Origin: a virus
Taxonomy: Duplodnaviria; Heunggongvirae; Uroviricota; Caudoviricetes
Reading direction: 5' to 3' (one strand)
IMG/VR virus record: IMGVR_UViG_2537561604_000012
Length of the DNA stretch: 30,216 nt
Position 1 is the stretch's first letter; every line of letters starts with the position of its first letter. Shown piece after piece: positions 11,740-14,324 of this stretch. The notes beneath the pieces were generated by a model. That model ran no database searches. It was not told where the DNA came from and was given only the letters and a program-made list of their open reading frames with translations. A program made the translations under genes and the position numbers.

Positions 11740-11801
11740 TTCGCTTTATTGCTGATTAGTCCAGAACATATTTTTAAATCGCTTAATTGCGAGGGAGTTT
11801 T

Positions 11802-12824
11802 ATGCACCTTAATAATCGTGCGCGGGATTTACTGGATAAATACTCGGCGGGGATGGCGCAGCAGTTTGGTGCGCGTGATACCAGTCGATATTTTTCCCTG
11901 AATGACCCGCAGGAAAATGCGCTGCGTCTTGCGCTGCTGGAGTCCGTCGAGTTCCTGAACATGATCACCTGTCTGGATGTTGACCAGCTGAGTGGCCAGG
12001 TGATCTCTGTCGGTTCCTCTGTGCTGCATACCGGCCGCAGCGAAAATGGCCGTTTCATTCGTCAGGTAGGCGTTGACGGTAATGACTATTCCCTGGTTGA
12101 AACAGACAGCTGCGCCGCACTGCGCTGGGATCTGCTTTCTGTCTGGGCAAACGCCGGTAAGGACGAAAACGAGTTTTACAACCTGGTACAGGCATTCACC
12201 ACGCAGGCTTTTGCGCTGGACATGTTGCGCATTGGTTTTAATGGTAAGAGCCGGGCGAAAACCACTGATCCGGTAGCAAACCCGAACGGTGAAGATGTGA
12301 ACATCGGCTGGCATGAGCGTATGAAAACGCTGCTGGGTGGCAATCAGATTATGACCGATCCCGTGGTGCTCGATGAGGCAGGGGATTACAAGTCACTGGA
12401 TGCAATGGCGTCTGATCTGATTAACGCCAAAATCCCGGCACAGTTCCGCAATGACCCGCGTCTGGTTGTCCTGGTCGGTGCCGATCTGGTCGCTGCTGAA
12501 CAGTACCGACTGTATCAGGCAGCAGACCGTCCGACTGAAAAAATTGCTGCGCAGATGCTGGGAAGCACCATTGCTGGCCGTCAGGCCATTATTCCGCCGT
12601 TTATGCCGGGTAAACGCATGGTGGTTACGCCGCTGTCTAACCTGCACATCTACACCCAGCGCAATACCCGTATGCGTAAGGCGGAGTTTGTTGAAGATCG
12701 TAAGCAGTTCGAAAACAAATACCTGCGCAATGAAGGTTACGCGGTGGAAGTACCGGAGCTGTATGCGGCCATTGATGAATCCGCTGTGACAATCGGCAAA
12801 GTCTCCGAACCGGTGGAGGGCTGA
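11802..12824 (+). CDS. N: Major capsid protein, P2 gpN-like
   Basis: ATG 11802 with GAGGGA 5 nt upstream; segments IGFNGKSRAKTTDPVANPNGEDVNIGW and GDYKSLDAMASDL...DPRLVVLVGADL closely resemble P2 gpN as I recall it. Confidence 0.85.
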   Translation: MHLNNRARDLLDKYSAGMAQQFGARDTSRYFSLNDPQENALRLALLESVEFLNMITCLDVDQLSGQVISVGSSVLHTGRSENGRFIRQVGVDGNDYSLVETDSCAALRWDLLSVWANAGKDENEFYNLVQAFTTQAFALDMLRIGFNGKSRAKTTDPVANPNGEDVNIGWHERMKTLLGGNQIMTDPVVLDEAGDYKSLDAMASDLINAKIPAQFRNDPRLVVLVGADLVAAEQYRLYQAADRPTEKIAAQMLGSTIAGRQAIIPPFMPGKRMVVTPLSNLHIYTQRNTRMRKAEFVEDRKQFENKYLRNEGYAVEVPELYAAIDESAVTIGKVSEPVEG

Positions 12825-12827
12825 TAA

Positions 12828-13532
12828 ATGGCACTTTCCCCCGCGCAGCGTCACAGCCAGCGTATTGCAATGGAACAAAAGCTGAAGCGCAGCCAGGCAC
12901 TGGAAACCGCGGAAAGTATGCACCTGCTGATCAGGGCGCTGGAAACGGATGTGGAACACGTTCGAAGTCTGCCTACCATCGCCGATCGCGTCGAGTATAA
13001 ACGCGATGTGCTGTTGCCGCGCTGGGTTCCCACTGTGGAAGCCTATCTGGAGAGTGGCCAGGTGTATGCAAATCCGGTTTTCGCCTGGTGTGTTATCTGG
13101 CTGTTTGACGTGGGCGATCTGGATAAGGCGCTGGACTGGGCTGACATTGCTATCAGCCAGCAGCAGGCAACCCCGGATCGGTTACGCAGCAATTTTCCCA
13201 CTTTCGTGGCGGATACGATGCTGGCATGGGCGCAGGAAACCGCAGGGCGTGGGGAAAGTGTGGAGCCTTATTTCACCCGCACGTTTGAGCGGGTGGCAAA
13301 CACCTGGCGACTGCATGAGCAAGTGACGGCCAAATGGTTCAAGTTTGCTGGTCAGGAGTTGCTACGCAATGACGATGGCCAGAAAACGGCGGCGGGCGTG
13401 GATGATATTGAAACGCTGGAAAAGGCCGATCAGCTGCTGGCTATTGCAGAAAAACACTACTCAAAAATTGGCGTCAGAACGGCACGGCAGACGATTGCCG
13501 CTCGCATCCGAAAATTGACAACACAAGGATAA
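12828..13532 (+). CDS. M: Terminase small (endonuclease) subunit, P2 gpM-like
   Basis: 234 aa, RBS GGAGGG; immediately after capsid gene as in P2 (O-N-M-L). Confidence 0.75.
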   Translation: MALSPAQRHSQRIAMEQKLKRSQALETAESMHLLIRALETDVEHVRSLPTIADRVEYKRDVLLPRWVPTVEAYLESGQVYANPVFAWCVIWLFDVGDLDKALDWADIAISQQQATPDRLRSNFPTFVADTMLAWAQETAGRGESVEPYFTRTFERVANTWRLHEQVTAKWFKFAGQELLRNDDGQKTAAGVDDIETLEKADQLLAIAEKHYSKIGVRTARQTIAARIRKLTTQG

Positions 13533-13538
13533 CAACAA

Positions 13539-13775
13539 ATGAAAGAAAGCCATTTACAAGGTGCACATACCCATACCGTGGGGGCACATAGCCATTCTCT
13601 GGGTGGTGCACATACCCATACCGTGGGGGCACATAGCCATTCTCTGGGTGGTGCACATACCCATACCGTGGGGGCACATAGCCATTCTCTGGGTGGTGCA
13701 CATACCCATACCGTGGGTGCACATAGCCATTCTCTGAGTGGTGCACATACGCACACTTTTAATACTGAGCAGTAA
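13539..13775 (+). CDS. His-rich tandem-repeat mini-protein (78 aa; 4.4 x 15-aa unit GAHTHTVGAHSHSLG)
   Basis: ATG 13539 with AAGGA 9 nt upstream, co-oriented in head operon; almost entirely HxH-containing repeats. Both strands are open across the repeat, so coding status is uncertain. Confidence 0.4.
   Translation: MKESHLQGAHTHTVGAHSHSLGGAHTHTVGAHSHSLGGAHTHTVGAHSHSLGGAHTHTVGAHSHSLSGAHTHTFNTEQ
13560..13760. repeat. 45-bp direct tandem repeat, 3 identical copies + 1 copy with 2 substitutions + partial copy
   Basis: Unit ggtgcacatacccataccgtgggggcacatagccattctctgggt at 13560-13604, 13605-13649, 13650-13694 (identical), 13695-13739 (2 mismatches), partial from 13740. Confidence 0.95.
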
Positions 13776-13871
13776 ACGACTACCGCAAGCCAGGCGGACG
13801 CGGTGGAGGGCAGAACACCTTGTGTGTAACTGCGCCGTGGAAACCGGCCAGTCCGCCTTTTCGGGGGATTT

Positions 13872-14324
13872 ATGTTTAGCGGAAAGCCGCTGGATTATCA
13901 GGATGAACCGCTGACCAATAACGGATTCTGGCCAGACCTGAATCTGAAGGATTTTCAGGCGCAGCGGTCACTACCGCCAGATATTGACGCTGACACCATC
14001 AGCCAGGCGCTACTTGCGGCGGTGGCGGAGGTGAATGCGGAGCTGGAAAACGTGGAAGCCAGCTGGAAAGCGAAAGGCAACACGCTGGCGGCAGAGGTAC
14101 CAGGCGTAAAAATGGGCGGACTGAACAGCCTGTGCGCCCAGTATATGAAGGCCGTTTTTGCCAGGGCAAAAGCGGATCTGCTGGGGGAGTTTGCCACCAT
14201 CGGGCGGCGTGATACCCATCCGGGACAGGAAAGCATGGAAACCCGTGCGGGGTTACTGGCTGAAGCATCGGTGGTGATCCGCCGTATGAAAGGGCTGAAA
14301 CGGGCAACGGTGAAAAAAGTATGA
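13872..14324 (+). CDS. L: Head completion/stabilisation protein, P2 gpL-like (by position)
   Basis: 150 aa, ATG 13872 with GGGGGA upstream; follows small terminase as in P2; no motif verified. Confidence 0.55.
   Translation: MFSGKPLDYQDEPLTNNGFWPDLNLKDFQAQRSLPPDIDADTISQALLAAVAEVNAELENVEASWKAKGNTLAAEVPGVKMGGLNSLCAQYMKAVFARAKADLLGEFATIGRRDTHPGQESMETRAGLLAEASVVIRRMKGLKRATVKKV

Follow-up and report, generated by a model that had tools for sequence, protein, structure and literature searches.

An optional mini-gene of H-x-H repeats between the terminase and head-completion genes of ESSI-2-like P2-family phages

H-x-H fibre proteins and the mini-gene of the window

Octahedral iron sites formed by His-x-His (H-x-H) motifs from three protein chains have been described in T4 gp37, the R1/R2 pyocin fibres, P2 gpV and phi92 gp138, and are proposed to set the folding register of the three chains (PMC6116203). 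In gp37, seven Fe ions along the axis are coordinated by motifs that three chains contribute (PMC6116203, PMC6957217, PMC12609058), the iron-binding histidines are essential for plaque formation (PMC6957217) and needle length is tracked by the number of motifs (PMC12609058). At 1026 aa, gp37 includes collar and receptor-binding head domains and depends on the chaperones gp38 and gp57A; its chain doubles back into a six-stranded needle. At the spike apex of gpV and gp138, as in the R1/R2 pyocin shafts, one H-x-H per chain contributes to an octahedral six-His Fe site, and this one site sits within a large folded protein.

We analysed a 30,216-nucleotide stretch of viral DNA (IMG/VR record IMGVR_UViG_2537561604_000012; hereafter, the window), which represents a P2-family temperate phage with ~98% identity over the M-L region to Escherichia phage ESSI2_ev129 (Peduoviridae, Quadragintavirus). 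ESSI-2-like coliphages have been isolated from infant gut samples and are reportedly rare in E. coli (PMC6969025). The genes in this region run in the order scaffold O, capsid N (11787-12824), the terminase small subunit gene M (12828-13532, plus strand; Pfam PF05944, E = 1e-39), a mini-gene, the head completion/adaptor gene L (13872-14324, plus strand; Pfam PF05926, E = 2e-38) and then the tail genes. The mini-gene (13539-13775, plus strand) comprises 78 codons plus a stop and was delimited from the open reading frame list, its match to PF03335 and the in-frame alleles described below. Its ATG lies 6 nt past the M stop codon, with a Shine-Dalgarno sequence, AAGGA, read directly at 13525-13529 (plus strand), 9 nt 5' of the ATG and inside the last codons of M.

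Using Tandem Repeats Finder, we found that most of this ORF is an array of 4.2 copies at 13560-13750 (plus strand), with a period of 45, 98% matches and a score of 368. Each 45-bp copy encodes one di-heptad, GAHTHTV + GAHSHSLG. A reading of the letters without database searches (the sequence-only reading) had described a tandem-repeat mini-gene inserted between M and L with three identical copies, one diverged and one partial. This is what we observe: the first three copies do not differ from one another, the fourth has two base changes (GGG>GGT, synonymous, and GGT>AGT, Gly>Ser) and the fifth is partial. The translation, MKESHLQ(GAHTHTVGAHSHSLG)x3 GAHTHTVGAHSHSLS GAHTHTFNTEQ*, thus reads as MKESHLQ, four GAHTHTV-GAHSHSL[G/S] di-heptads and a closing GAHTHTFNTEQ. 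The product is predicted at 7.9 kDa and pI 7.0, with 19 His among its 78 residues (24% His) and nine H-x-H motifs, and contains neither Cys nor a signal peptide.

The product passes the Pfam PF03335 (Phage_fiber) model in five stretches, at 31.0 bits against a cutoff of 20 (E = 1.8e-7), and contains the tandem H-x-H core with small flanking residues typical of that family, which bears out the proposal that its repeats are of the tail-fibre type. An exhaustive HMMER search of 1.84 billion representatives returned 59 hits. The non-spurious matches were of two kinds, fibre or baseplate proteins with H-x-H arrays following a Collar or Gp10_C domain, and large proteins with about 40 consecutive H-x-H heptads; the only short real matches were alleles of the mini-gene and a 54-aa protein from a diverged phage. 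The tip of T4 gp37 (2XGF) was the sole sequence match of solved structure, a weak one (E = 0.025) that falls on the H-x-H strand. Searches of Rfam (at the gathering threshold) and NCBIfam gave no match, PHROGs gave sub-threshold tail-fibre matches only, and no PADLOC family matched the product at E <= 0.1.

Both gp37 and the mini-gene product consist in part of units of the G/A-H-x-H-x-V type. They differ in the spacing of the motif, which is 7/8 residues in the mini-gene product and 9/13 in gp37, in the absence of any other domain from the 78-aa chain, and in the location of the mini-gene in the head module. In contrast to the one site of gpV, gp138 and the pyocins, up to nine or ten potential sites occupy almost the whole chain here. 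The best HMMER matches, two phage-like proteins of 1026 aa (P0002) and 234 aa (P0004) with about 20-40 uninterrupted 7-residue H-x-H units, share the 7-residue period over dozens of units, but have large N-terminal regions before the arrays and a conserved C-terminal globular domain after them. This shared domain has the pattern …YGVFRE…LEYR…GW.RLDIT…QIRRK…, and neither protein has a Pfam domain above the cutoff.

The tail fibre of the same phage (534 aa, 22742-24346, followed by its assembly protein at 24346-24933) offers the nearest comparison. Like the mini-gene, it is a late gene of the same motif family, with four consecutive H-x-H units at its C-terminus (24170-24277, plus strand; translated, 9-aa period). 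Unlike the mini-gene product, it has Phage_tail_fib and Collar domains and a repeat period of 9 aa rather than 7/8. The resemblance between the two that had been pointed out earlier therefore stands at the level of the motif, which fills the fibre's 36-residue end, and does not extend to the DNA, for which blastn found no similarity between the mini-gene and the fibre gene. Given this lack of DNA similarity and the different repeat period, we rejected a recent copy of the phage's own fibre as the origin of the mini-gene. As a separate observation, the part of the fibre that leads up to the H-x-H tip is mosaic, with Gly/Ser-rich or GAHTHSVSGTAASAG segments that differ, and the sole sizeable break in colinearity between the window and two ~95% identical prophages (L128 and L129) falls at ~23990-24196, in the distal part of the fibre and the start of Tfa. 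Such mosaicism is as expected for host-range swapping.

RefSeq/PGAP labels the mini-gene 'tail fiber protein', 'phage tail protein' or 'hypothetical protein'. The 78-aa product has no Phage_tail_fib, Collar or Gp10_C domain, and the gene lies between M and L, ~9 kb upstream of the fibre and Tfa genes and outside the tail module. We do not class it as a tail fibre because every fibre feature other than the repeat is missing. We searched the literature for H-x-H proteins that stand alone and for a moron between M and L, and no relevant report came up.

Allele lengths and constraint on the peptide

A word-indexed protein search yielded one candidate only, and an exact-sequence look-up found none of six alleles in the collection. 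As the repeat defeats word and exact indexes, alleles were sought by DNA pattern scans and by the exhaustive HMMER search. tblastn with the 82-aa allele against 50,697 phage records recovered ESSI2_ev129 only, with the low-complexity filter probably limiting. In total, 15 distinct alleles of the window's mini-gene family were found, with lengths of 32, 33, 47, 48, 53, 61, 68, 73, 78 and 82 aa, in related prophages and metagenomic contigs that carry the gene in the same position. Three of these (48 aa, 73 aa and an extra 32-aa variant) came from a metagenome scan; the statistics below use 13 distinct alleles, namely the other 12 of the window family and the gene encoding the 54-aa protein.

The range of lengths confirms the copy-number variation that the perfect repeats had suggested. 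The alleles are built of units with the pattern [G/S]-A-H-x-H-[S/T]-[V/L/A], which number 3 to 10 and in many alleles only 3, and array length changes in steps of 45-bp di-heptads or 21/24-bp heptads. Alleles of the window type form a ladder of 33, 48 and 78 aa, corresponding to 1, 2 and 4 copies of the 45-bp unit. These changes are likely to arise by slippage or unequal recombination between repeats. One 73-aa allele (L130, metagenome contig OBZV01012238.1) includes, flanked by normal heptads, a unit cut short to 5 residues, SAHSV; an indel thus need not span a whole unit, and the frame is kept nonetheless.

All 15 alleles are in frame and have in common the start codon, the ribosome-binding site, the N-terminus MKESHLQ and the C-terminus HTHTFNTE[Q/H], with the AAGGA Shine-Dalgarno sequence kept in every one. 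This excludes a non-coding repeat without conservation of the ribosome-binding site, which had been named as a finding that would speak against a gene. Across 29 distinct 21-nt units, entropy at the three codon positions was 0.55/0.53/0.94, and 37% of differences were synonymous in frame, compared with 21% and 6% when the frame is shifted. At Ser positions the codon changes between AGY and TCN, and at Gly positions it rotates through GGN. The second His of the motif is invariant (29/29 distinct units), and the first is present in 23 of the 29, being replaced by Tyr in five and by Arg in one; Gly occupies unit position 1 in 24/29 and Ala position 2 in 26/29. Diverged alleles carry many substitutions with the motif intact. 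On comparison of these sequences, the excess of third-position and synonymous variation, together with the invariant second His, indicates purifying selection on the peptide. We conclude that the mini-gene is a genuine, optional, protein-coding gene of ESSI-2-like (Quadragintavirus) P2-family phage.

The M-L junction as a cargo slot beside a conserved spacer element

We surveyed the M-L gap in 110 relatives retrieved through their L protein, the comparison that had been suggested for this junction. The mini-gene was present in 4 and absent from about 90%. In 98 of the relatives, a conserved spacer element makes up the entire gap; 6 have an unrelated ORF of 65-83 aa, and the remaining two (L119 and L122) have larger computed gaps in which no cargo ORF was seen. 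Among 5,426 complete E. coli genomes, 5 of ~25 prophages of the window type carry the mini-gene. In the prophage of E. coli EC101, which is otherwise ~95% identical, M is followed by a spacer of ~96 nt and then L, with no mini-gene between them.

Aligning the window with the empty-slot prophage L129 places the inserted DNA at 13533-13775 (plus strand). Presence and absence thus differ by a clean indel of ~243 bp between conserved neighbours, as is characteristic of a moron, although a promoter and terminator of its own, which also mark morons, were not found near the mini-gene in a consensus-based scan for sigma-70 promoters and terminators. The insert had first been put at 340 bp, a figure that takes in a further ~96 nt (13776-13871, plus strand) belonging to the ancestral spacer outside it. 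Nor does M run straight into L in P2-type operons, as had been supposed: the classical M-L spacers are 99 nt in P2 (L216 1902-2000) and 92 nt in 186 (L217 3149-3240), and the relatives of the window have the structured spacer of ~96 nt. An empty-slot prophage ~95% identical genome-wide has the same gp37-like fibre type, and we accordingly rejected a requirement for the mini-gene in fibre assembly. Neither the making of infectious phage nor the assembly of the phage's own H-x-H fibre depends on the mini-gene.

The spacer element was defined by covariation and a covariance model. Of the 19 pairs predicted, 12 carry compensatory double changes across 32 diverged copies; the share of paired cells is 95.5%, compared with 83% in shuffles and 30-48% with slid partners, and the covariation score is 0.45 versus 0.21. 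The covariance model matches the window at 13773-13873 with 105 bits and recovers the element from every ESSI-2-like lineage tested; it has no match in P2 or 186, whose spacers differ in sequence while containing an analogous long GC-rich hairpin (GGGCGGCACGCCGGTC...GACCGGCGTCCACCGCCC). No Rfam family matched the element. In or beside its internal loops are GGAGG, with a strictly invariant GAG core, and a near-invariant CCGUGGA. At the end of the element lie a T-run and GGGGGA, the ribosome-binding site of L; in most lineages the outer stem is followed by the T-run and then by the ribosome-binding site of L. It may act as a terminator or attenuator, be a site of processing, or control the translation of L. 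We also noted that the start of L is annotated differently between sources: ESSI2 phage records place it 51 nt further upstream (504 bp; L001 2523-3026 versus L003-L007) than PGAP does (453 bp), and this upstream start falls inside the structured spacer.

The unrelated ORF found in the slot (65-83 aa) is annotated as 'L33' in ESSI2_ev040 (L002 2236-2433) and belongs to phrog_8618. ORFs of this type also occur at L053, L055, L091, L120, L123 and L125, including prophages of Yersinia and Enterobacter. L33 lies directly after M with its own ribosome-binding site and has replaced the 3' end of M; it had no match in Pfam, PDB or PADLOC. Like the mini-gene, L33 (as in ESSI2_ev040 and ESSI2_ev015) is optional and uses the same insertion point, and the stop codons of both cargoes sit where the M stop is in empty phages, abutting the spacer. 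It differs in being unrelated in sequence, free of repeats and more widely distributed. In ESSI-2-like phages, then, the M-L junction is a cargo slot; it may be the sole junction of the operon with non-coding room.

In the window, M and the mini-ORF are in one reading frame, separated by TAA CAA CAA (13530-13541 with the start codon), and read-through of the M stop would put the H-x-H array at the C-terminus of the terminase small subunit. This shared frame is probably a coincidence, because L33-type cargo is not in frame.

The 54-aa protein found by HMMER, MMNNKNNNVCTHNHAVGAHTHSLGGTHSHTPGVHTHSLGGTHTHTLGAHTHEQA, is encoded directly upstream of the Phage_GPL gene in a diverged phage (L013), in which L has 58% identity to that of the window, the gene after it 40% and the last part of M 52%. 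Here the order is M, spacer element, mini-gene and L, so that the insertion point is unlike that of the window, and the termini of the protein are unrelated to those of the window family. In the closest relative (L136), the flanks are ~99% identical and precisely this ORF is missing, a clean 165-bp indel. The gene is known from one contig: it was absent from all 63 relatives in the L013 clade, and scanning IMG/VR directly turned up no second copy. The repeats of the window and of L013 share 80% DNA identity over 120 nt, which could reflect a constrained peptide. H-x-H mini-genes have thus entered the M-L interval at two different points at least, the second case being one contig.

Candidate roles of the mini-gene product

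We propose that the mini-gene encodes a late accessory protein that is a fibre shaft and nothing else, a metal-stapled trimeric needle whose length varies with the number of repeats; by analogy with the fibre systems above, we give this reading about even credence. With no promoter or terminator of its own inside a late operon, the gene is expected to be expressed late, alongside virion parts; the product would be made with the virion proteins from the head operon, using its own ribosome-binding site. Three chains would then align, each H-x-H giving two of the six histidines of an axial octahedral site for Fe(II) or another metal, and so form a short trimeric beta needle, stapled by metal and lacking both an attachment domain and a receptor-binding head. 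The conserved termini may serve as contact surfaces and the variable array as a spacer, with decoration of the head or neck, or joining to another trimeric virion protein, as candidate targets. An AlphaFold2 model of the product reached a pLDDT of 55, for a monomer of a presumed obligate oligomer, and is too poor to be informative. About 20% of the distinct units have Tyr or Arg for the first His and would be unable to form a six-His site. Since an unrelated ORF can occupy this slot too, the position beside L counts for little as evidence that the product acts at the head or neck.

Small, dispensable, trimer-forming proteins encoded in or near head genes are familiar from T4 Soc, lambda gpD and the T4 fibritin whiskers. 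Their likeness to the mini-gene product is a functional analogy only, and attachment to capsid or neck is hypothetical here.

The alternative that fares best, though we think it unlikely, is a neutral or decaying passenger, in which an ORF-sized fragment of fibre-like repeat entered the one permissive junction of the late operon, brings the phage no benefit whether translated or not, and drifts by slippage until it is lost. The sporadic distribution fits this well, with the gene missing from about 90% of relatives and from the whole of the L013 clade, as do the many 3-unit alleles, the units that lack a His, the unrelated ORF in the same slot and the intact appearance of the isogenic phage without the mini-gene. 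Drift would hardly have kept the frame, start codon, ribosome-binding site and both termini in 15/15 alleles despite many indels, or the motif in diverged alleles with many substitutions, and the codon-position statistics and invariant second His point instead to purifying selection on the peptide.

An ambitious version of the shaft proposal, to which we assign a rather low probability, is a homotrimer held together solely by up to nine or ten Fe(II)/Zn ions, a 'metal wire' that would dock by its termini on a three-fold position of the capsid or neck and whose recurrence beside L would be functional. If so, the natural alleles would be a ready-made length series and the product a new kind of decoration fibre for P2-family phages, and the recurrence beside L in two lineages would reflect function and not just a permissive site.

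Somewhat less probable again is a soluble, cytoplasmic, non-structural protein that buffers or delivers Fe, Zn or Ni late in infection, perhaps loading the H-x-H sites of fibres and spike, or alters host metal homeostasis. A His content of 24%, a neutral pI and late co-expression with iron-containing virion parts would suit such a role, but the regular G-A-H-x-H-S-V heptad and the match to PF03335 point to a defined beta-fibre fold and not to a loose His-rich tail, phages without the mini-gene build the same fibre, and the literature searched gave no experimental precedent. A metal-binding peptide and a decoy, both raised in the sequence-only reading, are conjectures.

The leaders of his operons are known His-rich peptides, and the stop codon of the mini-ORF lies 1-4 nt from the conserved hairpin, which is followed by a T-run. 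We nevertheless regard as very improbable a regulatory upstream ORF or leader peptide, in which the passage of ribosomes through this His/Thr/Ser-rich frame would govern the terminator-like element and, through it, how L and the tail genes are expressed. About 90% of relatives have the element but no ORF, and as the M stop is in the same place in them, the ORF contributes nothing new; the mRNA here is no more stably folded than shuffled sequence (z = -0.93), and no alternative pairing joins the ORF to the element; an array ranging over 3-10 units would not be tolerated in a leader; and the retention of Ser across tRNA families argues for selection on the peptide. An attenuator of the his/thr type was rejected on the separability of element and ORF, the position of the L013 mini-gene 3' of the element and the same z-score.

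Mis-assembly is conceivable with perfect repeats, but a non-coding repeat or assembly artefact, against which the sequence-only reading had cautioned, is scarcely credible because phage ESSI2_ev129 and E. coli EH09-18-41, assembled independently, have the gene at the same 237 bp, other allele lengths bear their own substitutions, and the coding statistics oppose it.

These findings bear on how H-x-H fibres are studied. The iron sites formed by such motifs have so far been examined only inside very large, chaperone-dependent proteins. The natural series of 3 to 10 units, in a protein of 4-8 kDa, would be the smallest system in which to test whether H-x-H motifs and metal suffice for trimer folding, and would also suit asking how length and metal content scale. 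The database labels are corrected in that the mini-gene product is not a tail fibre, and the M-L junction of ESSI-2-like phages emerges as a cargo slot adjoining a conserved structured RNA/DNA element. While the repeat family was already known, a naked H-x-H shaft carried as an optional late gene is, by comparison with the systems considered here, plausibly new.
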